Shown here piece by piece: positions 3,186-62,640 of a DNA stretch of 64,000 bases. Below the pieces are notes generated by a model that was given only the letters and a program-made list of their open reading frames with translations, was not told the DNA's origin and ran no database searches. How positions within the stretch are numbered: the first letter of the stretch is position 1; every line of letters starts with the position of its first letter. The stretch comes from an uncultured Candidatus Saccharibacteria bacterium. Lineage in GTDB: Bacteria > Patescibacteriota > Doudnabacteria > UBA920. Location of the stretch: the NCBI GenBank assembly GCA_964556325.1, contig CAZKVS010000001.1, positions 67,133-131,132 on the forward strand, in the 5' to 3' direction. The position numbers and the translations under genes were made by a program.

Positions 3186-3385
3186 ATAAATGCAGAAGTC
3201 AGAATTTTAGAATGCCTAATAAAATCAGTGCACTTTCTTGTATTTTAGCGGTTTTTTTGGCCTATTACAATGAGCAGCATTTTGGTATACTAAAGACCAG
3301 TAATGAGAAATGAGGCTTGAGGTATGAGTCTGCTAAAAGCGAGTTTTACTCATTACTCACGGCTCATTACTCACTACTATTTTTT

Positions 3386-4554: not shown

Positions 4555-5076
4555 ATGTCAGAAACTACACGGAAATCTTTTTATATTTTTCTGTCTACAT
4601 TTCTTGGGGTGTTATTGTTTTTAATGTTAGATAGAGCCGCGTTTTTAATAGCGTTTATTGCCGGGGCAGACATTACCTCTTTGCCTGTACTTGCCTTAGA
4701 GTACGTAACTTCCATGATAGCTGTCGCCTTTGGGGCGTGGTATGGTATTTGGCTCGGTCTTGTTTGGTATGCTGCGGTATACGAAGAGAAAACTACTCGA
4801 GGAGTGTATGGGTGGATAAGGGGTTTTCGTGGTGGGGCAGTGGGCGCCGCTCAGGACGGTTCTTGGGAAATAGACGACTTAGTTACGGTAACCTCCAACG
4901 ACTCAAAAGGACGAGAGAAGCTAGATTATTTTGAAGCAAACACGGTTAAATTTGCTGGTGGTTCTCCGGTTGCCTCTAGTAGGTTGCAACTTGCCCCGGA
5001 AGACGAAATGCCCAAACCGCGAGTGGTAGCAAAGCGTGCGCCTCGGAAGACGGCGGTAAGAAAAACAGTCTCTTAA
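4555..5076 (+). CDS. Hypothetical membrane protein with basic C-terminus
   Basis: Several predicted TM helices. The C-terminus is Lys/Arg-rich. Confidence 0.4.
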   Translation: MSETTRKSFYIFLSTFLGVLLFLMLDRAAFLIAFIAGADITSLPVLALEYVTSMIAVAFGAWYGIWLGLVWYAAVYEEKTTRGVYGWIRGFRGGAVGAAQDGSWEIDDLVTVTSNDSKGREKLDYFEANTVKFAGGSPVASSRLQLAPEDEMPKPRVVAKRAPRKTAVRKTVS

Positions 5077-5169
5077 ATGTAGAAGTTAGAATGCAGAATT
5101 CAGAATGAATTATGCGCTGGGTGGGCTCTGCATTTTCTATTCATAATTCTACATTCATAATTCTGCATG
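5077..5169. repeat. Word-built intergenic palindrome (GAAT/AGAAT words)
   Basis: gtagaagttagaatgcagaattcagaatgaattatg ... cattttctattcataattctacattcataattctgcatg. Confidence 0.6.
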
Positions 5170-5553: not shown

Positions 5554-5649
5554 TGGACAAGCATTGGAAGCGCCTCTCATCAAGGCGTTTTTTTTGTTAT
5601 TGACTATAGGTGTACGGTCGTATACTATACAAGAAATGACCACATAACA

Positions 5650-5737
5650 AATGTCTAATACCTAATTTCTAATGTCTAGTCGAAATGCACAAGACTGTCC
5701 GGACCATTAGGAATTAGATATTAGAAATTAGGTATTT
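5650..5737. repeat. Word-built intergenic palindrome (CTAAT words)
   Basis: aatgtctaatacctaatttctaatgtctag ... cattaggaattagatattagaaattaggtatt. Confidence 0.65.
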
Positions 5738-5749
5738 CTTTCTACCTGT

Positions 5750-7223: not shown

Positions 7224-7326
7224 GCAGAATTATGAATCATGAAGTATGAATCAAGAGATAGACCACTCTTTTTCTAAAAGAAAAAGAGTGGTCTCCATAA
7301 TTCATAATTCCACATTCTTGATTCCG
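7224..7326. repeat. Word-built palindrome (TGAAT words) around a terminator hairpin
   Basis: cagaattatgaatcatgaagtatgaatcaag | agaccactctttttctaaaagaaaaagagtggtct | ccataattcataattccacattcttgattc. Confidence 0.65.
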
Positions 7327-7377
7327 TGCCTCACTTTGCTGTGGTATACTAAAAGTACTGTGATTAAGCAAAAAAGT

Positions 7378-7647
7378 ATGGCAGACGAAACAGAAAATTA
7401 TAAAAAAATGTTGTCCGACTTAATCAAGAAGCAAATGGTTATGCTCGGCCCCAATATTGCGCTCGATAAAGCACGTAAAGTGCCCGGCTTAAAGTTGGAC
7501 GATAGTGGTGAAGTGTTGGAAATGGACGGCGATCCTCGTATGGTTTTAAAGGGTGTGGCCAATGAATATATGACACTTTCAGGCCAAATTGCTCAAATGA
7601 CTCTCAATACTTTGTTAGAAAAATATCCTGGGGTACAGAACATCTAA
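7378..7647 (+). CDS. Small hypothetical protein
   Basis: Internal ATG at 7378 (MADETENYKKMLSDL...). The upstream part of the 7246 ORF lies inside a terminator-like palindrome. Confidence 0.4.
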   Translation: MADETENYKKMLSDLIKKQMVMLGPNIALDKARKVPGLKLDDSGEVLEMDGDPRMVLKGVANEYMTLSGQIAQMTLNTLLEKYPGVQNI

Positions 7648-9569: not shown

Positions 9570-9950
9570 ATGCCAAAGATTGTTATAGCAGAAGACGATA
9601 AGTTATTGTCCGGTTCTCTCGTAGGTGCCTTTACCGACGCGCATTTTGAAGTTTTTCCTGCCTACGACGGTGAGGAAGCCATAGCAAAAATTAAAGAAGT
9701 AAAGCCTGACGCAGTACTGCTCGACGTCATGATGCCGAAGCTAGACGGTATTGGCGTGCTCTGGGAGCTTAAGGCAAACCCTGATACTTCTGGAACACCT
9801 GTGGTTGTGCTGACTAACATGGCCGACATGGACACTATAGCCAAAATTATGGATGCGGGTGGAACCGACTACTTGCTGAAGAGTGACCAGTCCATAGATA
9901 AAATTATAGAAAAAGTGCAGCAGGTCATGGCCCGCGCAGCCGCTAAATAG
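9570..9950 (+). CDS. Stand-alone response-regulator receiver domain
   Basis: IVIAEDD ... LLDVMMPKLDG ... K near the C-terminus. No output domain. Confidence 0.8.
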   Translation: MPKIVIAEDDKLLSGSLVGAFTDAHFEVFPAYDGEEAIAKIKEVKPDAVLLDVMMPKLDGIGVLWELKANPDTSGTPVVVLTNMADMDTIAKIMDAGGTDYLLKSDQSIDKIIEKVQQVMARAAAK

Positions 9951-10040
9951 TGAACAGGGGACAGTGGAAAGTGAACAGGTATAATCCTGTCTTTCCTGAT
10001 TGGCTGTAAACTGTTCACTAGTCACTATCCACTACACTAT
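9950..10040. repeat. Word-built palindrome (GTGAACAG words)
   Basis: agtgaacaggggacagtggaaagtgaacagg ... actgttcactagtcactatccactacact. Confidence 0.5.
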
Positions 10041-10566
10041 GGATGTATTTTCTCACGGATTATGGGGATACGCTTTGGCTTACCCGAGTGCGCAAAAGCA
10101 ACAAAAGCCTAAAAAGGCTTTATGGGGCTTAGTGTTAGGTATGTTGCCGGACGTTATTCCTTTTTTACCGGTTCAATTATATTTTTTATTTCATCGGGTA
10201 TCGTTTGATGCTGGACTCTTCTTTCCTGTGCCCCAACATTGGGTTTTTTCGTGGGCAATTGAAAGTTACAATTATACGCACAGTTTAGTATTGTGGGCTG
10301 TTGTGTTTGCGCTGGTTTTGATTGTGCGAAAAGGGAAAGTATGGATTCCGCTGTATGCGTGGGGATTGCACGTGCTTATGGATATTCCAACTCATCCAGA
10401 TTTTTTTCAAACTCCATTTTTATTTCCGCTATCGAGCTTTAAGCTGGTTGGCTTTGGCTTGTCGTGGGCGCATCCCCTTATTTTCTTCACCAATTGGGCC
10501 GCATTGGCGGTCATCTACGTGTTTATATTTCGAGATATTCGTAAGAGCAAGCGGGCTAATTCTTAA
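10039..10566 (+). CDS. Membrane-bound metal-dependent hydrolase-like protein (DUF457/YdjM-like)
   Basis: MDVFSHGLWGYAL start and His-rich TM helices. Assigned from overall pattern only. Confidence 0.35.
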   Translation: MDVFSHGLWGYALAYPSAQKQQKPKKALWGLVLGMLPDVIPFLPVQLYFLFHRVSFDAGLFFPVPQHWVFSWAIESYNYTHSLVLWAVVFALVLIVRKGKVWIPLYAWGLHVLMDIPTHPDFFQTPFLFPLSSFKLVGFGLSWAHPLIFFTNWAALAVIYVFIFRDIRKSKRANS

Positions 10567-10569
10567 TTC

Positions 10570-11046
10570 GTGATTCGTAATTCCAACTTCTTCGTTCTCG
10601 CGCATAACATTCGGAGCCTGCACAATGTGGGGGCTATTTTTCGTACAAGCGACGTATTTGGGGTCTCAAAGCTTTATTTAAGTGGTTATACCGGTCATCC
10701 GCCAGATGCAAAGCTAGAAAAGGTGGCGCTGGGGGCGGATAAAACCGTGCCCTGGGAGTACAATAAGTCTGCGGTACGAATTGTTAAGAAATTAAGATTG
10801 CAATATCCCGAACTTGTCGTAGTTGGGTTGGAAAATAACATAAAGGGTCGCACCATTCAGTTACTCTCAAAGTTCAAACCGCAGTTCCCTGTGTTATTGG
10901 TATTGGGCGAAGAGGTGAAGGGGATTCCCAAGCCGGTACAAGCGTTATGCGATGCATTTGTAGAAATTCCCCAATACGGGCAAAAAGAGTCGCTTAACGT
11001 CTCGGTCGCCTTTGGCATAGCTGCATATGCCCTAAAAACCCAGTAG
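10570..11046 (+). CDS. SpoU/TrmH-family RNA 2'-O-methyltransferase
   Basis: NIRSLHNVGAIFRTSD ... LVLGEEVKGI ... ESLNVSVAFGIAAY motifs. Confidence 0.75.
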   Translation: MIRNSNFFVLAHNIRSLHNVGAIFRTSDVFGVSKLYLSGYTGHPPDAKLEKVALGADKTVPWEYNKSAVRIVKKLRLQYPELVVVGLENNIKGRTIQLLSKFKPQFPVLLVLGEEVKGIPKPVQALCDAFVEIPQYGQKESLNVSVAFGIAAYALKTQ

Positions 11047-12137: not shown

Positions 12138-13571
12138 TTAGCCTAGAGCCGTTGCATCTGCAAAATCTGCGATTTGCAGGGCTTTTTGCGTTGCTAGGCC
12201 CGTATACTGCTCGGGGTGGTGAAGTAAGGCTATTACTTCTGCGGGGATTTGTTTCCAGACTTCGCCAAATATTTCGTCTTCGAGCGCATATTCTGCGGCG
12301 ACCTCTACGAGGAGTCTGCCGCTCTTTTGTGCCCTGGGAACGAGTGTGTGGTTCACCAGTTCATGTCCGTCTTGCATGTATCCTGCCATTTGGATGGCAA
12401 TGTACAATGGTTCGGACAGAATGAGGTGGGCATTCATTTGAAAGTTTCGGCTGCAGTTATCGGCGTTTACTGTCATGCGTTCCAGGAAAGGTACGCCGCT
12501 GTCATTTTCCCGCAAGAGGGTATTGAGTTGGGTTACAAGATTCACGAGTATAATTGGGAAATCGCGGGCAACTGCACTGCCTACGAGGTCCCGTTGATGC
12601 TCGCTTAAAAGTGTATCCAGTACTTTGCCAAATTCGTTTTTGGTGCGAATCCACATAGCCTGCAAGTTTTCCCAGTTAATTGGGTTGCGCTTGTGGGCCA
12701 TGGTAGAGGAGCCGCCTTGGCCTACTATAAACTCTTCGGCAATTTCCGCAATTTCCGTTCGCATGAGTTGCCGACAGTCCAACCCAAGTTGGGCGAGGCT
12801 GGCTGAAAGCATGCAAGCGGAGTGGAGGTAGTAAGCAAGAGGTTCAGGGGGGAGGATTTGAGTGCTAATTCGAGCTGGTTTTAAACCCAGCTTGGAAAGC
12901 AGGCGTTCCTCATAGGTTTGGGCGCTGGCTTGGTTTGCCTGTTGTGCTCCAAGCCCAACTTGGGCATTGTATGCACCCACTGCGCCGGATATCTTGCCAA
13001 CCAGTTCCGTGTGGTGTAGCTCCATTTTCTGAAAGTTGTAGATAACGCGGTTGAGGACTGTTGCTAGCCAAAAACCGACCGTTATAGGCAGCGCATGCTG
13101 TCCATGTGTTCGTCCAATCTGTAATTGGTCTGCATAAGTGCGCACTAACCCAGACATGACTTGTATGGTTCGTTGCGTGGCAGGTCTTACGACTTGGCGG
13201 TGTGCCCGACTGAACTGTAGGATTCTGCCCGTGTCCAGAGGGTCGTAGCTCGTAAGCATGACGTGCAGCAGAGGAGCCATGTCGGGTGGTACAATCTTTG
13301 TCGCATTTGTAACCCAGGCGCGTATGTCGTGTTTGGTTACTTTGCGTTCAGTCTCCTCAATTTGGGTGGTGGTCAAGCTCAGGACTCTCGCCTGAACTTC
13401 TGGTGTTAAAAGAGCAATAACCTCTGCTGGAATCAGTCCAACTTCAGCCATTGTTTGTAGATTGGCAATTTCAACCTCTCCGACGGTCCGGTATAGATTG
13501 TCGTAACCAAACATATCGAAAAGCTGTTTTGGTTGATACCTGGGGTTTCCAGGCAGTATAAGATTGGTCAT
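12138..13571 (-). CDS. purB: Fumarate-lyase-superfamily enzyme, most likely adenylosuccinate lyase
   Basis: GSSTMAHKRNPI signature (SSxMPxKxN) plus the family's helical core. Subfamily is inferred. Confidence 0.6.
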   Translation of the reverse strand: MTNLILPGNPRYQPKQLFDMFGYDNLYRTVGEVEIANLQTMAEVGLIPAEVIALLTPEVQARVLSLTTTQIEETERKVTKHDIRAWVTNATKIVPPDMAPLLHVMLTSYDPLDTGRILQFSRAHRQVVRPATQRTIQVMSGLVRTYADQLQIGRTHGQHALPITVGFWLATVLNRVIYNFQKMELHHTELVGKISGAVGAYNAQVGLGAQQANQASAQTYEERLLSKLGLKPARISTQILPPEPLAYYLHSACMLSASLAQLGLDCRQLMRTEIAEIAEEFIVGQGGSSTMAHKRNPINWENLQAMWIRTKNEFGKVLDTLLSEHQRDLVGSAVARDFPIILVNLVTQLNTLLRENDSGVPFLERMTVNADNCSRNFQMNAHLILSEPLYIAIQMAGYMQDGHELVNHTLVPRAQKSGRLLVEVAAEYALEDEIFGEVWKQIPAEVIALLHHPEQYTGLATQKALQIADFADATALG

Positions 13572-13840
13572 CGTTTTTCCTCCGGTTGATTGTAGAAAGA
13601 GCAGTGTGTTTCAGCAATAAGCCATTCTAGCTAAGCTTTAAAACTTTGTACAATAGACAACCCGCTTCTACTTCGGAGATTAAATCCTGGGAAATTACAT
13701 CAAATACCATAACTTACCAAGGGGTGTGGATTGTTGTGAATCTTATATGAATAAAAGTATATATACCGCTGGGTCAAGCGGTATTTTTTATTTGTGGAAC
13801 TTTTGACCCGGTAGGGAACGGTGGGGTATACTGGTTATGC

Positions 13841-13893
13841 AGTGGTAGAAAGTGGATAAAAGTGGGGATAAGTGGTAGATAAAGTGGATAACC
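13841..13893 (+). promoter_or_regulatory. Five tandem AAAGTGG-type direct repeats about 10-11 bp apart, upstream of mraZ (putative MraZ operator)
   Basis: The run agtggtagaa agtggataaa agtggggataa gtggtagataa agtggataacc. It resembles MraZ-binding direct repeats (GTGGG / AAAGTGG) described in E. coli and Mollicutes. Confidence 0.5.
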
Positions 13894-13920
13894 TAACAAG
13901 AGTTACCAAGGGTAACTCTT

Positions 13921-13995
13921 ACCGCTGATCCTTGTATCCTTAATCCTTAACAAAATACACAATCGAGAATCGATTGTGTGAGTCAAGGATTAAAC
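13921..13995. repeat. Word-built palindrome (CCTTAAT words) with a central hairpin
   Basis: ccttgtatccttaatccttaac aaaatacacaatcgagaatcgattgtgtgagtcaaggattaaac. Confidence 0.55.
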
Positions 13996-13999
13996 ATTA

Positions 14000-14455
14000 A
14001 TGATTAGGGATGTACCCCCGCCTATGTTTATTGGTGAATACGATGCTTCAATAGACGATAAAGGTAGGGTTGCAGTGCCTACTAAGTTTCGAGCTGCCTT
14101 AAAAGGCAAGGTCGTGGTCACTCGCGGTCTTGATCAGTCGCTTTTTTTATACCAAAGTCCCGAGTGGAAAGTCATGGCGGAGAAGCTGGCTAGTCTCCCA
14201 ATTTCTACTGCAAATACTCGGGCCTTTTCCCGGCTGATGTTAGCCGGTGCGGTAGAGTGCGATATAGATAAACAGGGGAGAATTATCTTACCCAGCTATC
14301 TACAGGAGTTTGCCGGCATGTCTAAGCGGGTCATATTTGCCGGACTCTACAATCGTATAGAAATATGGAGCGAGGATCGGTGGAAAGCCTATAAGACTGA
14401 GACCGAAAAAGAAAGCACTGCCATAGCTGAGCAGTTGGGTAGTTTGGGAGTATAA
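14000..14455 (+). CDS. mraZ: Transcriptional regulator MraZ
   Basis: MFIGEYDASIDDKGRVAVP and a second DxxxR half-domain (DKQGRIILP). The true start may be the Met at 14024. Confidence 0.85.
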   Translation: MIRDVPPPMFIGEYDASIDDKGRVAVPTKFRAALKGKVVVTRGLDQSLFLYQSPEWKVMAEKLASLPISTANTRAFSRLMLAGAVECDIDKQGRIILPSYLQEFAGMSKRVIFAGLYNRIEIWSEDRWKAYKTETEKESTAIAEQLGSLGV

Positions 14456-14542
14456 GAAATATCTAATTTCTAATACCTAATATCTAATAAAAATACAAAG
14501 AATATTCTGTCATTAGAAATTAGTAATTAGGCATTAGAAATT
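14456..14542. repeat. Word-built intergenic palindrome (CTAAT words) between mraZ and rsmH
   Basis: aaatatctaatttctaatacctaatatctaat ... cattagaaattagtaattaggcattagaaatt. Confidence 0.65.
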
Positions 14543-15484
14543 ATGGCCGTCTACTCCCATACACCAGTTCTTTTACAAGAGGTTTTGGAATATTTGCAGC
14601 CTAAAGCTGGTGGCGTTTTTATAGACGCAACGCTTGGCGGCGGCGGGTACACAGAAGCAATTGCCACCAAGGTTGGCCAAAAAGGCAAGGTGCTATCGTT
14701 GGACCTAGATGCCGACGCAATCCAGGCATTTAAGGATAAACCTCGAATCTTGAAGCTCGAACCTGTCTTGGTTCAGGGAAATTTTAAAGACATCGCAGCT
14801 ATCGCTCAAGAACAAGGTTTTACCGGAGTAAATGGTATTGTGGCCGATATTGGCCTCTCAAGTTATGAACTTGATGACGCAGGGCGCGGCATTAGCTTTA
14901 AACACGATGAGCCGCTTGATATGCGTTTTAATGCCCAGTCCGATGGTGTGACTGCTGTGAGTTTACTCGCAGAAAAAACAGAATTAGAGCTGTCCACTTT
15001 GTTTACAAAATATGGTGAGGAGCGATACGCGCGTCCCATCGCCCGGAATATTGTTCGTACACGTACGGAAGAACCCGTTACGAGAACCACTCAGTTGGTG
15101 GATATTATTACGAACAGCATTCCGCGCGCTGTTAGACATAAAGCCCAAGATTCGTGCAGACGAATTTTCCAGGCTTTACGAATAGCCGTGAACGGAGAGT
15201 TGGACAATTTACAAGAGTTTCTACCAAGTGCGTTAAGTCTTCTTGCGCCAGGCGGTAGATTGGTTGTGGTATCTTTTCATTCTCTTGAGGATAGAATTGT
15301 AAAGCAATTCTTTGTTAAAGCCGCCACAGGGTGTATATGTCCGTCGAGTTTTCCCCAGTGTGTGTGTGGAAAGAAGCCACAAGTGCAAATTTTAACGCGG
15401 CGTCCTATTACGGCAGGTGAAGGTGAGCTTGCGCAGAACACACGGAGTCGCCCTGCAAAGCTGCGGGCAGCGCTTAAATTATAA
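14543..15484 (+). CDS. rsmH: 16S rRNA (cytosine1402-N4)-methyltransferase RsmH/MraW
   Basis: HTPVLLQEVLEYL, DATLGGGGY, SFHSLEDRIVK. Confidence 0.9.
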   Translation: MAVYSHTPVLLQEVLEYLQPKAGGVFIDATLGGGGYTEAIATKVGQKGKVLSLDLDADAIQAFKDKPRILKLEPVLVQGNFKDIAAIAQEQGFTGVNGIVADIGLSSYELDDAGRGISFKHDEPLDMRFNAQSDGVTAVSLLAEKTELELSTLFTKYGEERYARPIARNIVRTRTEEPVTRTTQLVDIITNSIPRAVRHKAQDSCRRIFQALRIAVNGELDNLQEFLPSALSLLAPGGRLVVVSFHSLEDRIVKQFFVKAATGCICPSSFPQCVCGKKPQVQILTRRPITAGEGELAQNTRSRPAKLRAALKL

Positions 15485-15514
15485 TATTAATTAGTAGTTT
15501 AAAATAAAACAAAA

Positions 15515-15952
15515 ATGTCAGCACCTCATGTAATGTCAGTTGTTACGCACCTACCCGGGATAGAAAGGTCCAGTGGAGCCTTAGCGGATAGAACTGCGCC
15601 ACACGCTCATGCCGGCAAGGTAGTTCGCGCAGCGTCTAAAAAAGGAGTTCGTAAAGTAGCTATTCCGTGGACCGCCTATGGGACGCTAGTGCTGGTGGGA
15701 ATAAATGTTTTGTTCTTTGGTTGGTACTTAGTCGGCGTAAACAATTTTGCGGGTCTGGGGTACGATATGAATCAGGCGCGCAAGCAGCTTATGAAGTCTA
15801 CGGAGGCTCAGAGGCAACTACAAGTATCTGTGGCCGAGCGGAGCGCCGTGGTGCGCATGCGTGAGCAGGCTGTTGCGGAACAACAATATGTTGCGCAGGG
15901 TATTCCTGAATTTATCCCGTTTGCTGCGCCTATGCAGCTTTCCATGCGTTAA
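15515..15952 (+). CDS. FtsL-like cell-division protein (TM + coiled coil)
   Basis: Sits between rsmH and ftsI. Single TM helix then a helical segment. Confidence 0.45.
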   Translation: MSAPHVMSVVTHLPGIERSSGALADRTAPHAHAGKVVRAASKKGVRKVAIPWTAYGTLVLVGINVLFFGWYLVGVNNFAGLGYDMNQARKQLMKSTEAQRQLQVSVAERSAVVRMREQAVAEQQYVAQGIPEFIPFAAPMQLSMR

Positions 15953-16015
15953 TACGGTTATTTGATATACATTGACTGCCTCGGCTATTTACTAATTACT
16001 AGGAACTAAGTACTG

Positions 16016-17764
16016 TTGCGTATGAAGCGGTCTACTACTATCACACCATTCACCGGTCGGATTAAGCTCGTTACCGGTGTTTTTGTATTTTTATTTACTA
16101 TATTAATTATTCGTCTCGCTGTGTTGCAGGTCGGTTCTGCTGCGTACTATAAAGATCAGGCAGCTGGCCAGCATGCTTTTTTTGATCAGCTGGCTCCCAG
16201 TCGGGGTGAAATTAAAGTAGCAGATAAAACCAGTGCGGAGAATTTACCTGTGGCTACAAATATTCACGTGCCTTTGGTATACGTGGTGCCAAAATCAGTA
16301 GTCGACCCTCTGCGAGTGGCTCAAGGACTTTCGGGGGTACTTGGTATTCCGGAGGCAGACATCTTGCCCAAGTTAAATAGTAAAAATAAGGCCTATGTGC
16401 CCATTAAACGAAGGCTGAGTCAGGACGAGGTAGATAAGCTAAAAGCTCTCAATTTACCCGGAGTTGCATTTGATGATGAGTTGGTGCGGTATTACCCAGA
16501 GCATTCATTTTTAAGTCACGTTATTGGTTTCTTGGGGTACAAGGAAAATTCAGGTAGTGACCGCGTGGGGTTATATGGCATTGAAAAAAGTTTTAACGGT
16601 GCCTTGTCGGGGCAAGCAGGTTCGTTAGATACTAATAATTCGGGTACCGGTTCGTGGTTGTTTGGTGTAAAACAGGCCTTCCAGAGTGCGACAAACGGGA
16701 GTCAGCTGCTTTTGACCATAGATCGTTCTGTCCAACTTACCGCTGAGCAAGTTCTAGCGAGTGCTGTAGAAACTCATCAGGCAGACGGTGGGTGTGTGAT
16801 AGTTATGGATCCAAAAACGGGTGCTGTACTCGCCATGGCGAGCAATCCGGCCTACGATCCAAACGAGTACAATAAGGTTGCTAATCAGGCCGTGTTTTCT
16901 AATTTATGTACCACTGGCTCGTATGAGCCAGGTTCGGTTTTTAAAGCGGTGACTATGGCGGCAGCAATCGATAAGGGTGCTATCACGCCCGATACTACCT
17001 ATGTTGACTCTGGACAGGTAGTGGTTGATGGATACACCATAAAAAACTCCGACAATAAAAGCCATGGAGTTCAAACCATGACTCAGGTACTGGAAGAGTC
17101 TTTAAACACCGGAGTAATATATGCTAAGAATAAAATTGGCAATAAAGCCTTTTTGGACTACGTGCAGCGCTTCGGATTTGGCAAGCTCACAGGCTTAGAC
17201 ATTCCGGAGATTGGCGGAAGTATAAAGAACTTAAATGGAAACGTAGAAGTAAACTACGATACTGCCAGTTTTGGGCAGGGGATACTGGTCACGCCTATAC
17301 AGATGGTAAAGGCCTATGCCGCTATTGCCAATGGCGGCAAAATGCCTGTTCCTCATGTGGTGGGCGCGCAAATAAGTCCCGATGGAAAGATAGCTGAAAC
17401 TCCTATTAGCCTCGGACAGCAAATTATTTCTCAAAAGACCGCTGAGAGTTTGGGGGCTATGTTAGTCAGTGTAGTTGAAAATGGTCACGGAAAACGGGCT
17501 CGAGTACCTGGGTATTACGTAGCAGGTAAGACAGGGACTGCGCAAGTAGCAAAACAAGATAGCGCGGGGTACGATCCGAATAATAACATTGGAACCTTTG
17601 TAGGCTATGCTCCGGTGGAAGATCCGAAGTTTGTTATGCTTGTACGTATAAACCATCCACGAACAGTGCAGTTCGCGGAGAGTACTGCTGGACCGGCCTG
17701 GGGTCAAATAGCAAAGTTTATTTTGTCTTACTACAACGTGCCACCGAATAGACCGCTTAAATAG
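16016..17764 (+). CDS. ftsI: Penicillin-binding protein (FtsI/PBP2-type transpeptidase)
   Basis: N-terminal TM. Motifs SVFK (SxxK), SDN and KTGT. Confidence 0.85.
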   Translation: MRMKRSTTITPFTGRIKLVTGVFVFLFTILIIRLAVLQVGSAAYYKDQAAGQHAFFDQLAPSRGEIKVADKTSAENLPVATNIHVPLVYVVPKSVVDPLRVAQGLSGVLGIPEADILPKLNSKNKAYVPIKRRLSQDEVDKLKALNLPGVAFDDELVRYYPEHSFLSHVIGFLGYKENSGSDRVGLYGIEKSFNGALSGQAGSLDTNNSGTGSWLFGVKQAFQSATNGSQLLLTIDRSVQLTAEQVLASAVETHQADGGCVIVMDPKTGAVLAMASNPAYDPNEYNKVANQAVFSNLCTTGSYEPGSVFKAVTMAAAIDKGAITPDTTYVDSGQVVVDGYTIKNSDNKSHGVQTMTQVLEESLNTGVIYAKNKIGNKAFLDYVQRFGFGKLTGLDIPEIGGSIKNLNGNVEVNYDTASFGQGILVTPIQMVKAYAAIANGGKMPVPHVVGAQISPDGKIAETPISLGQQIISQKTAESLGAMLVSVVENGHGKRARVPGYYVAGKTGTAQVAKQDSAGYDPNNNIGTFVGYAPVEDPKFVMLVRINHPRTVQFAESTAGPAWGQIAKFILSYYNVPPNRPLK

Positions 17765-17828
17765 CCTCTGAGGCTATTTAAGACATCTCTAATCCTTGAT
17801 CTTTAATCCTTAATCAAATACGAAAGCT
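17765..17828. repeat. Left arm of the inverted repeat around the four-helix-bundle gene (CCTTAAT words)
   Basis: ctctaatccttgatctttaatccttaatc is mirrored at 18198..18245 as ggattaagcattacagattagagattaaatc. Confidence 0.6.
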
Positions 17829-18197
17829 ATGGATAAACATGGGTTTCGATTTCGTGATTGGCCAGTATATAAAGATGCTCGAATATTTCGAACTCAAATA
17901 ATGCTTTTGGCCAAAACATTTCCGAAAGAAGAGTTATATGCGCTTACAGATCAAACGCGACGGGCACTTAATTCAATATTGTTAAATTTAGCAGAAGGCT
18001 CTAACAAAAACACTGATAAAGATACACGGGTATATATAAACCGTGCACAAGGGTCACTCGATGAGGTTGTTGCCTGCCTTGATTGTGCAATCGATGATAA
18101 GTACATTACTGAGGCTCAGCAAAAAGAGGCGCTGGAAATTGCAGAGTCTCTGGCGAAACAACTTAAGAGCTTTACTGCGTACCTATCTTCTCGTTAA
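17829..18197 (+). CDS. Four-helix-bundle protein (23S rRNA intervening-sequence protein family)
   Basis: Typical length and heptad pattern of TIGR02436-like proteins (LNSILLNLAEGS...). Flanked by inverted word-repeats. Confidence 0.6.
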   Translation: MDKHGFRFRDWPVYKDARIFRTQIMLLAKTFPKEELYALTDQTRRALNSILLNLAEGSNKNTDKDTRVYINRAQGSLDEVVACLDCAIDDKYITEAQQKEALEIAESLAKQLKSFTAYLSSR

Positions 18198-18245
18198 GGA
18201 TTAAGCATTACAGATTAGAGATTAAATCGCGCTCCTGCGCGATTT
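18198..18245. repeat. Right arm of the inverted repeat around the four-helix-bundle gene, with a short GC hairpin
   Basis: ggattaagcattacagattagagattaaatcgcgctcctgcgcgatttg. Confidence 0.55.
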
Positions 18246-18446
18246 GCCCCAATGCACGGTATTCCAAAAACGTTCATGAACAAAGTATAGGATAGTGCTG
18301 GCTATATTAGAAAAAACAATTACCTGCAGCGTGGTATCGTAGCGGTGGGTAATAGTAAAGATAATCAGTCCGTCTGAAATAAGGATAACAAAGCGATAGG
18401 TGAGTGCTTTCAACAGCGACCGCTTGGCGTGTTCGTGAAAAGCCAT
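18222..18446 (-). CDS. DUF2061-like small membrane protein
   Basis: KALTYRFVIL...HERFW pattern. Confidence 0.4.
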   Translation of the reverse strand: MAFHEHAKRSLLKALTYRFVILISDGLIIFTITHRYDTTLQVIVFSNIASTILYFVHERFWNTVHWGKSRRSAI

Positions 18447-18457
18447 ACGATGTATAT

Positions 18458-19345
18458 TTATTCTGTTCTGTCTGCTCGCTTACCGTGTACGACAGTTTTT
18501 TTAATGGGTGGTAAATGAGTAGGGCCGTAGTCAGACATAACTACACCCGCGGGATTGTGCTCAAGGCTAATGGCTCTTGGCTGTTGAAACGCGCCGTTTA
18601 CTAATAGCTTATTTATATAATGAAAGGCTGCATCTGCATGCTCTACCAGATGGTACAATTGCGTGTCTTCTGGAGCAATTGCTTGGTGTTCTTTCAAAAC
18701 TACTTTGTCAATCCACTTTAAGAGAGGTTGCCAGAAGTCTTTGTCTATAAGCACGACATACACACCGCTCATTTTTTTCGTTTGAATGAGTGTCAGAATT
18801 TCAAAAAGTTCGTCAAGCGTACCAAAGCCGCCCGGGAAAAATATGTATATTTGGGAAACTGAGGCAAGCATTACTTTGCGGGTAAAAAAGTAGTGGAACG
18901 ATTCGCTTTCGCTGACGTATCGGTTTATGCGTTGCTCTGAGGGGAGTTGTATATTTAAACCAACCGATTTACCTCCGGCCTCTTTTGCGCCTTTGTTGCC
19001 GGCTTCCATTATACCCGGTCCGCCGCCTGTGACGACTGCAAAGCCCTCTTTGGCCAGTAAGTAGCCAAGTCGTTGTGCGTCCCGGTACACCGAGTGTTCC
19101 GCGCCCCAGCGAGCAGAGCCAAAAAAGCTTACCGCATGTTCGAATTGGTTTATAAACCTGTACCCGGCCATAAACTCAGAGACAATGCGCCAAAGTCGCC
19201 CAGGAGAAAATAAGTTTTCCCGGACTGTCATGAGTTTGTCTACTTGTCGTTTAGTCAGCTGCCCGTTGTGAATAGTTATCTTTTTCCTGTTTTGCTTTTC
19301 GGGTAGGACGATGTGGATCTTTTTATGTGGGTGTTTGTCTGTCAT
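18458..19345 (-). CDS. LOG-family protein (cytokinin riboside 5'-monophosphate phosphoribohydrolase-like)
   Basis: [27 protein letters not shown] and [12 protein letters not shown] motifs. The N-terminal extension is longer than usual. Confidence 0.75.
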
Positions 19346-19390: not shown

Positions 19391-19466
19391 GTAGAATTAC
19401 GAAGTATGAATCATGAATTATGAATTATTAATCAAAAACTCTCTGCAAAGCAGAGAGTTTTTTTCG
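19391..19466. repeat. TGAAT word repeats followed by a terminator hairpin
   Basis: gtagaattacgaagtatgaatcatgaattatgaattatt, then aaactctctgcaaagcagagagttttttt. Confidence 0.55.
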
Positions 19467-62135: not shown

Positions 62136-62246
62136 TTAATTTCCTCGGATGCACGGATAACACGGATTGCGCAGATTATGGAGCAGTGCCTTTCGTATTC
62201 TGTATTGCAATCTGTGATATCCGTGTAATCCGTAATCTGTGAACAT
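62136..62246. repeat. Word-built intergenic palindrome (CGGAT words)
   Basis: gatgcacggataacacggattgcgcagattatg ... caatctgtgatatccgtgtaatccgtaatctgtg. Confidence 0.65.
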
Positions 62247-62525: not shown

Positions 62526-62640
62526 TCGCAAAGAAATTTCCAATTTCTAATTACTAATTTCTAATGTGAAGTACAAAAACCTTATTGTATTCATAATTAG
62601 AAATTAGATATTAGGCATTAGATATTTGAGTCAAAACTAA
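62526..62640. repeat. Word-built intergenic palindrome (CTAAT words)
   Basis: ccaatttctaattactaatttctaatgtg ... cataattagaaattagatattaggcattagatattt. Confidence 0.65.

Follow-up and report, generated by a model that had tools for sequence, protein, structure and literature searches.

The 64,000-nt stretch of contig CAZKVS010000001.1 analysed here (hereafter, the window), from an uncultured Candidatus Saccharibacteria bacterium of the candidate phyla radiation (CPR, Patescibacteria), placed by the analysis near Candidatus Doudnabacteria, carries a small cassette between the cell division gene ftsI and a convergent gene for a DUF2061 protein. The cassette consists of a gene for a four-helix-bundle ('S23p') protein, located in the loop of a hairpin whose arms are inverted arrays of a seven-nucleotide word, and it was gained within this lineage. 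The same gene accompanied by the same words occurs in many unrelated operons, almost always in the orientation of the gene upstream. Taken together, these observations make it rather probable, in our judgement, that the cassette is an element of the type known as an intervening sequence (IVS) but residing in an mRNA spacer, where it is co-transcribed with its host operon, processed by RNase III, marked by words that its own protein reads, and spread via hairpin spacers. Two parts of this reading, the cutting of the cassette stem by RNase III and the recognition of the words by the encoded protein, are what we infer.

A four-helix-bundle gene enclosed by inverted heptamer arrays

The features of the cassette and its immediate borders are as follows.

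17756..17782, + strand, 13-bp perfect palindrome CTTAAATAGCCTC t GAGGCTATTTAAG, over the last ftsI codons and stop codon (17762-17764)
17785..17815, + strand, left arm, ATCTCTA ATCCTTG ATCTTTA ATCCTTA ATC, about four heptamers, ending 13 nt 5' of the ATG
17829..18197, + strand, four-helix-bundle ('S23p') gene, 122 aa, with PF05635 and TIGR02436 profile matches
18194..18224, + strand, right arm, TTAAGGA TTAAGCA TTACAGA TTAGAGA TTA, the complementary heptamer array
18224..18245, unstranded, hairpin with a G+C-rich stem of 9 bp, AAATCGCGC tcct GCGCGATTT, within the final codons of DUF2061 (convergent)

The product of the open reading frame (ORF) at 17829-18197 is a four-helix-bundle ('S23p') protein of the PF05635/TIGR02436 family, scoring 92.7 bits against Pfam PF05635 (23S_rRNA_IVP; cut-off 33.8) and 82.9 bits against TIGR02436 'four helix bundle protein' (cut-off 24). 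Its translation contains R45-x3-S49-x3-N53-x2-E56, the motif of the family, for which the consensus GxxRxxxSxxxNxxE has been reported (PMC3936711), and this motif is aligned in the match to the crystallised Xanthomonas protein XCC0516 (PDB 2GSC; 2gsc_A, E 2.4e-7). An earlier interpretation made from the letters of the window (the sequence-only reading) had placed a 122-aa four-helix-bundle gene at this position and assigned it to the family first known from 23S rRNA IVSs; its coordinates proved exact, and the profile scores, well above both cut-offs, and the 2GSC match agree with that assignment. The gene has the same orientation as ftsI, and its neighbours encode FtsI, DUF2061, a LOG-family protein and NAPRTase. 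An Rfam scan of 13500-19000 returned zero matches, including none to rRNA, and the cassette, flanked by ftsI and DUF2061, is not inserted in a 23S or 16S rRNA helix. An identity as the accessory protein Avd of a diversity-generating retroelement (DGR) was also considered and rejected, as the Avd equivalog NF033474 gives 22.5 bits against a cut-off of 80; neither a reverse transcriptase nor a pair of template and variable repeats (TR/VR) adjoins the gene.

The paired segments of the two arms (17785-17813 and 18194-18222) are 29 nt long, 83% complementary and separated by 380 nt, and are built from the heptamer ATCYYTR and its complement. Their alignment scores 34, whereas 30 shuffles averaged 15.4 and did not exceed 25; the window has the complete left arm once, and none of 100 shuffles contains it. 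In the minimum-free-energy structure predicted for 17750-18260 (z = -6.95) the arms pair with one another. Across the window, 12 arrays have a period of seven nucleotides and two a period of eight, with none of periods 5, 6, 9 or 10, and shuffles gave zero. The sequence-only reading described the gene as sitting exactly between two arms made of repeated words. The arms are real, being arrays with a 7-nt period and no simple palindromes, but the fit is not exact, as the right arm overlaps the gene by 4 nt and thereby covers its stop codon (18195-18197); it also covers the stop codon of DUF2061 (18222-18224, minus strand).

The hairpins at 17756-17782 and 18224-18245 are separate from the arms. 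The 13-bp palindrome is restricted to cassette-carrying lineages, being missing from four relatives whose FtsI is 86% identical (loci L125-L128), and it is not followed by a T-run and hence is not a canonical intrinsic terminator; the 9-bp hairpin falls within a high-identity tract common to the window and the related, cassette-bearing locus L074. On the + strand of 17600-18500 a scan for intrinsic terminators found no G+C-rich stem with a T-run, and the promoter scan found no + strand promoter-like site for the cassette gene. The arms are related to one another as well as to the gene, and the flanks are not plain terminators.

The same words accompany the same gene in unrelated operons

A metagenome scan for homologues of the cassette protein yielded 46 loci. 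Among the 18 unique homologues of at least 62% identity, nearly all have (A/T)ATC(C/T)TT words on both sides, and those between 62 and 81% identical occupy approximately 12 unrelated gene contexts. In this clade the upstream neighbour is co-oriented with the four-helix-bundle gene in 14 of the 15 callable cases. The homologue P0003 from another genome (81% identical), for instance, has def on one side and an RNase T-like gene on the other, and is preceded by AATCCTT AATCCTT AACTCTT AATCTTT and followed by GATTAAG, GGTTAAA and GATTAAA words. The outermost word (ATCTCTA on the left, TAGAGAT on the right) is kept in the window, L074 and L079, and some positions of the homologues are stably inherited across several genomes. 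More distant homologues (31-46% identity) carry other words, such as GGGTCAA/GGGGCAA, CATATGG/CTTATCG and GTTATTG. In 830 kb of CPR DNA around ftsI that holds no four-helix-bundle gene, none of the 70 period-7 arrays has the ATCCTT word.

The association was also evident in numbers, with arrays on both sides of 42% of the 33 unique four-helix-bundle genes and of 1.6% of the 1039 control ORFs (p = 6e-15), and with an inverted-repeat score above that of all shuffles for approximately 27 of 34 such genes. The left array of the homologues ends 0-24 nt 5' of the start codon, and the right array often starts 2-43 nt ahead of the stop, with some ORFs reading into it. At two loci (L086, 2489-3382; L090, 632-1561) the homologue forms the N-terminal part of a longer ORF of 297 and 309 aa, respectively, and L086 has several additional ATCCTT/AAGGAT arrays upstream and downstream of its long ORF; these long ORFs could result from array read-through, fusion or tandem cassettes.

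The ftsI locus before the cassette and the age of the insertion

In the four relatives with 60-65% identical FtsI (L001, L002, L004 and L005), the gene order is mraZ-rsmH-ftsL-ftsI with a convergent DUF2061 gene immediately after it, then a LOG-family gene and a gene of 210 aa, and the same order from mraZ to the convergent DUF2061 gene, without a four-helix-bundle gene, is found in L125-L128. A PF05635 homologue within 6 kb was found at none of the 73 orthologous ftsI loci. As the gene-less relatives share both the short division and cell wall (dcw) cluster and the strand flip that follows it, both traits predate the cassette. The sequence-only reading had taken the lack of murE, murF and mraY and the strand flip as signs of an invasion; these are ancestral traits, so that a false lead is removed for this window: the short dcw cluster belongs to the lineage and is not damage by the cassette. 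The comparison of the region downstream of mraZ-ftsI, which that reading had proposed, did reveal relatives without the gene, but their spacer is not empty.

In the relatives with 86% identical FtsI, ftsI and DUF2061 are separated by approximately 80 nt that make up an ORF-less hairpin from a different set of words (GAGACAAG... / CTTGTCACCTG); its central stem, AACACGAGACC t GGTCTCGTGTT, is perfect. This GACAAG-word hairpin is common to relatives ranging from 65% (L002) to 86% FtsI identity, and it therefore represents the older state of the spacer. The ATCCTT-word cassette has replaced the entire ftsI-DUF2061 spacer both in L074 and in the window. Compared with the gene-less relatives, there is no target-site duplication at the cassette borders, the spacer having been replaced and the flanks not duplicated; a clean empty site is lacking among the relatives, whose spacer holds another hairpin, so that the borders of the insertion are not defined to the base. 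The cassette is a lineage-specific gain that took the place of an older ORF-less word hairpin.

Two side observations concern the same relatives. L125 and L128 are near-identical around the ftsI-DUF2061 hairpin except that its right array differs by 14 nt, or two heptamers (L125, 6244-6330; L128, 6244-6316); this is a change of unit number by slippage like that reported for the Coxiella IVS. In addition, L125 has an IS1595-family transposase gene (1318-2184) between a SpoU methylase gene and mraZ, which is found neither in L128 nor in the window.

Between the window and L074, DNA identity is 84-92% in the flanking genes, 95.7% in the cassette ORF and 97-100% in the arms; the cassette proteins are 98% identical, compared with 93% for FtsI (84% at the nucleotide level). 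Identity of 0.95-0.99 is confined to approximately 17730-18280, coinciding with the cassette. At 4-fold sites the cassette gene diverges by 0.135 and ftsI by 0.479 (p = 2e-6 for these two), with values of 0.341 for the LOG gene and 0.206 for mraZ. The low 4-fold divergence and the tract of high identity over the cassette indicate that it is younger than its surroundings or was recently exchanged.

ORF-less heptamer elements in the window

A second, ORF-less copy of the cassette arms lies 3.8 kb away in the 5' untranslated region (UTR) of mraZ, and it is the only further copy with the cassette words within the window.

13927..14011, + strand, ORF-less copy of the cassette arms in the mraZ 5' UTR, comprising the following three parts
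13927-13951, + strand, left array, GATCCTT GTATCCT TAATCCT TAAC
13957-13979, + strand, central perfect hairpin, ACACAATCGA gaa TCGATTGTGT
13985-14011, + strand, right array, AAGGATT AAACATT AATGATT AGGGAT

This element is approximately 85% identical to the cassette arms (hand count), shares with the cassette the motif AAATAC just inside the left arm, and folds at -30.3 kcal/mol (z = -5.0). Its structure fits that of a relative of the cassette that may have arisen by internal deletion. An orthologue is present in L128 and absent from L125 and L017, and the counterpart in L074 has a different loop hairpin and re-sorted words on the right; such elements therefore turn over much faster than the surrounding genes.

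The region around this element contains features of mraZ itself. A promoter-like site (TTGACC at 13804-13809 and TATACT at 13827-13832, within the region 13804-13895) is followed by five GTGG boxes approximately 10 nt apart (13842, 13852, 13862, 13872 and 13884), presumably the operator repeats of MraZ, and the stretch is 98% conserved with respect to L074 and clearly kept in all close relatives. The annotated mraZ ATG (14000) falls inside the right heptamer array; the real start is probably the ATG at 14024 (MFIGEY...), as in all relatives.

Other spacers of the window contain ORF-less hairpins or arrays made of other words.

3299-3373, 5076-5155, 5648-5740, 7226-7324 and 9944-10037, ORF-less heptamer hairpins in intercistronic spacers
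10554-10591, heptamer array without ORF
14452-14545, ORF-less heptamer hairpin, mraZ-rsmH spacer
15985-16014, ORF-less heptamer hairpin, ftsL-ftsI spacer
19393-19440, ORF-less heptamer hairpin
62153-62233 and 62531-62630, ORF-less hairpins or arrays

Their word families include xxCTAAT/ATTAGxx, AGAAT, GAATTA, GTGAACA and ACGGAT. The hairpins often terminate at the start codon that follows. Of the four dcw-cluster spacers, three are occupied, and the hairpin at 7226-7324 overlaps the predicted start of the ORF 7246-7647. The suggestion of the sequence-only reading that the cassette termini are word palindromes of a kind seen elsewhere is thus borne out by further heptamer hairpins across the spacers of the window. 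In the mraZ-rsmH spacer, the hairpin is built from TAATTTC/TAATACC words in the window (14455-14542) and from CCAATTT/CCAATAT in L074 (1654-1759), the two being 65% identical compared with 86-92% for the flanking genes; the pace of evolution is far higher in the heptamer hairpins than in the genes. Period-7 arrays are a common feature of the closest relatives and of a few other lineages of the CPR, and many further lineages lack them.

Relation to rRNA IVSs and to heptamer repeats of other phyla

The closest parallel is with the IVSs of 23S rRNA in Coxiella burnetii, and also in Leptospira, Xanthomonas and Brucella, which likewise hold a PF05635 ORF in the loop of a long stem. In Coxiella the terminal stem of 28 bp, compared with 29 nt in the window cassette, was shown experimentally to be cut by RNase III, and two to three tandem GACAGAT units, depending on the strain, followed by a degenerate GACAGAA, lie just 5' of the S23p start (PMC4990558). 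Tandem heptamers directly upstream of the start are thus common to both, with about four units in the cassette and a strain-variable number in Coxiella, and the two also resemble each other in an element length of approximately 430 nt, a patchy distribution and suspected mobility (PMC4990558). In contrast to the rRNA IVSs, the window cassette lies between convergent protein genes; its word is ATCYYTR and not GACAGAT, and its excision by RNase III is proposed by analogy only.

In the Planctomycetota, a clade around locus L116, with members 75-79% identical to the L116 protein, occupies at least three contexts: mutS-gene-M48 peptidase, mutS-gene-NTase/HEPN, and gspF-gspG-gene in the pseudopilin operon of type II secretion. 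Its copies (L133, L136 and L137 among the loci) have GAC(A/G)GA(G/A/T) words upstream and their complements downstream. The heptamer GACAGAT found upstream of S23p in the Coxiella IVS (PMC4990558) matches these GACRGAR words, but no Coxiella protein is among the best 120 matches to the Planctomycetota clade, and for now we regard the shared heptamer as a coincidence of words. On complete cyanobacterial plasmids, the four-helix-bundle gene lies between cmr2 and cmr3 or between cas6 and cas4, flanked by GTCAGGA/TCCTGAC in Nostoc punctiforme, GGAGATA/TATCTCC in Picosynechococcus and GGTGACA/TGTCACC in Anabaena sp. 90. The cyanobacterial (L130, L131 and L132) and Planctomycetota (L133, L136 and L137) copies are always co-oriented with the host operon. 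A functional link of the family with CRISPR-Cas was proposed from its position between cas genes (PMC3936711); this position may instead reflect promiscuous insertion.

In Xanthomonas campestris a 4-unit GGGAATC array begins 6 nt past bccP and extends over the start codon of XCC0516, and the groES-groEL spacer holds an inverted pair of 4-unit heptamer arrays (Rehm et al., supplementary table). As described above, XCC0516 is a sequence relative of the window protein. The repeats have been treated as simple repeats that form G-quadruplexes, in a paper that is silent on the protein family (Rehm et al.), and the array adjoining XCC0516 is, unlike the cassette arms, without a listed inverted partner. 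Xanthomonas has 186 arrays of one word, and the genome that encodes XCC0516 has approximately 70 inverted array pairs without an ORF, the pair in the groES-groEL spacer among them. The short tandemly repeated repetitive (STRR) sequences of cyanobacteria (GGGGATT) and the TAACTGA repeats of Beggiatoaceae are also intergenic arrays with a 7-nt period that often end at start codons, and in the cyanobacteria plasmid-borne four-helix-bundle genes lie between heptamer arrays; however, both repeats have been described as free-standing, in papers that mention neither 23S IVSs nor four-helix-bundle proteins. In the literature searched, no paper joins PF05635 to heptamer arrays, with the exception of the description of the Coxiella IVS, and the cross-phylum tie between this family and clade-specific heptamer arrays therefore appears to be undescribed there.

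Two further classes bear a more limited likeness. Avd shares the fold superfamily and forms pentameric four-helix bundles, and PF22296 (bAvd) matches some of the homologues, whereas the window protein is far below the Avd equivalog cut-off and lacks the reverse transcriptase and TR/VR partners. MITEs (miniature transposable elements with inverted repeats) and palindromes of the repetitive extragenic palindromic (REP) type are likewise short, structured and dispersed in spacers and vary between close strains; the elements of the window differ from them in consisting of degenerate 7-nt words of variable unit number, in the absence of target duplication and in the many word families per genome.

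Proposed mechanism and rival explanations

The absence of a + strand promoter-like site or terminator and the co-orientation with ftsI suggest that the cassette would be transcribed by read-through from ftsI, without a promoter of its own. In the transcript, the arms would pair into a stem of approximately 29 bp that RNase III may cut as it does the stem of the Coxiella IVS. This would free the cassette RNA and leave the ftsI mRNA with the 13-bp hairpin at 17756-17782 as a 3' cap, so that the insertion would cost the host operon little. A processing stem needs no particular sequence, yet the word is constant within a protein clade and differs between clades, which argues that the arrays may be read sequence-specifically, most simply by the encoded, perhaps pentameric, protein. 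The arrays typically have 4-5 units, and XCC0516, the solved member of the family, is a pentamer (PMC4990558). Such binding could regulate how the cassette is processed or translated, or could have a part in cassette spread, which would proceed by recombination or replacement at existing hairpin spacers and not by cut-and-paste transposition.

Several observations weigh against this interpretation. In this organism the cutting by RNase III is argued by analogy only, and in the view of the authors of the Coxiella study S23p is decaying and is not produced in vivo (PMC4990558). Arms pair only modestly better within one element than across different loci (35.1 versus 29.8; p = 0.0008), and among the mismatches of 29 arm pairs G.U and A.C are about equally frequent (53 and 51), giving no signal of pairing in the sense RNA; nothing here specifically favours such pairing over a pair of arrays that share a single degenerate word. 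In L132 (Pseudanabaena galeata plasmid pPg_01), where the gene lies between cas6 and cas4, the arrays are direct and not inverted, with approximately 15 AAAGCTA units upstream and a long AAAGCCA array downstream (1380-1491 and 1852-1960). Arrays distal to a four-helix-bundle gene match its word in 21% of cases, compared with 11% expected, so that a rule of one protein and one word per genome is unsupported as stated; as the distal arrays mostly consist of other words, the arrays of a genome cannot all be cognate to one protein unless there are several paralogues. The divergence of the flanks is itself uneven, as the low value for mraZ (0.206) illustrates, and the young cassette could be one more recombination tract. 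Finally, neither a target duplication nor a mobility gene is present at the cassette, and 'mobile' therefore describes its distribution and not a mechanism. The sequence-only reading had proposed a small mobile or invasive cassette: the cassette nature is supported by the gene-less relatives, the approximately 12 contexts and the young age, and mobility by the distribution, but invasion of an empty site, target duplication and a mobility enzyme were not found.

An unlikely alternative is that the system is a non-selfish host regulatory module, in which the protein is a resident RNA- or DNA-binding regulator of heptamer arrays in spacers and 5' UTRs, the arrays at its own gene are autoregulatory sites and the ORF-less hairpins form its regulon; TRAP and HutP are comparable ring proteins acting on spaced repeats. 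The ORF-less hairpins in many spacers of the window, often ending at the next start, and the cassette words in the mraZ 5' UTR would be expected of such a regulon, and the specificity of the words to protein clades, the 4-5-unit arrays set beside the pentameric XCC0516, and the single word shared in Xanthomonas by 186 arrays and the XCC0516 start point the same way. However, most arrays near the gene use other words, close relatives without the gene are still rich in arrays, and the gene is wedged into operons as unrelated as those of cas, mutS, type II secretion and def, with no functional theme; the cassette is also younger than the genes around it. A DNA transposable element, with the arms as terminal inverted repeats for a transposase encoded elsewhere, the gene as cargo and the element at 13927-14011 as a MITE-like derivative, is distinctly improbable. 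Its inverted termini with a conserved outermost word (ATCTCTA / TAGAGAT in the window, L074 and L079), the second set of these arms, lacking an ORF, at a distance of 3.8 kb, the approximately 12 contexts and the patchy presence among relatives are what this explanation would draw upon, but no target-site duplication is seen against the gene-less relatives, where the spacer was replaced and not interrupted, the number and order of units in the arms vary, unlike ends bound by a transposase, and some positions are stably inherited across several genomes. Moreover, the only transposase near the locus among the loci examined is the IS1595 gene of L125, which is cassette-less.

We give very little credence to the view that an ordinary spacer structure, such as a bidirectional terminator or stabiliser between ftsI and DUF2061, came by chance to adjoin an unrelated gene, or to its variant, a DGR (Avd) remnant. 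It is true that relatives hold a gene-less hairpin in the same spacer, and that PF05635 is related to Avd and gives a weak match to the Avd model. Chance is nevertheless contradicted by the homologues, which have these words on their flanks in operons that are unrelated and mostly co-directional, and by two-sided arrays at 42% of four-helix-bundle genes against 1.6% of control ORFs, and the locus has no T-run terminators; the remnant variant is countered by the score of 22.5 against 80 bits and by neighbours (FtsI, DUF2061 and a LOG-family protein) that do not include a reverse transcriptase.

Implications for the family

Our analyses describe a package, consisting of the gene and inverted clade-specific heptamer arrays, that is found across unrelated operons and has the architecture of the ORF-containing rRNA IVSs. 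The S23p/four-helix-bundle family is very large, with 6394 matches from one clade alone, and it is function-less in annotation, where its members are usually labelled without comment. For this protein, sequence-specific binding to a 7-nt repeat is a testable idea. The contexts described here also call for caution against annotation through guilt by association, as in the case of the CRISPR link, and they suggest where the so far unexplained heptamer repeats between genes in several phyla may come from.

More tentatively, as a possibility that we would not yet favour, PF05635 genes and inverted heptamer arrays may constitute one class of element across the CPR, Planctomycetota, Cyanobacteria, Xanthomonas and Coxiella, in which a pentamer recognises its own word, the rRNA IVS is a special case, and arrays without an ORF are non-autonomous or decayed relatives. 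If this is true, the ORF-less arrays, including the cyanobacterial STRR sequences, the xanthomonad GGGAATC arrays and those in the spacers of this CPR genome, would be relatives of the class. The excess of heptameric repeats that has long been noted in bacterial genomes would then have a cause, and a large function-less family would have a role.

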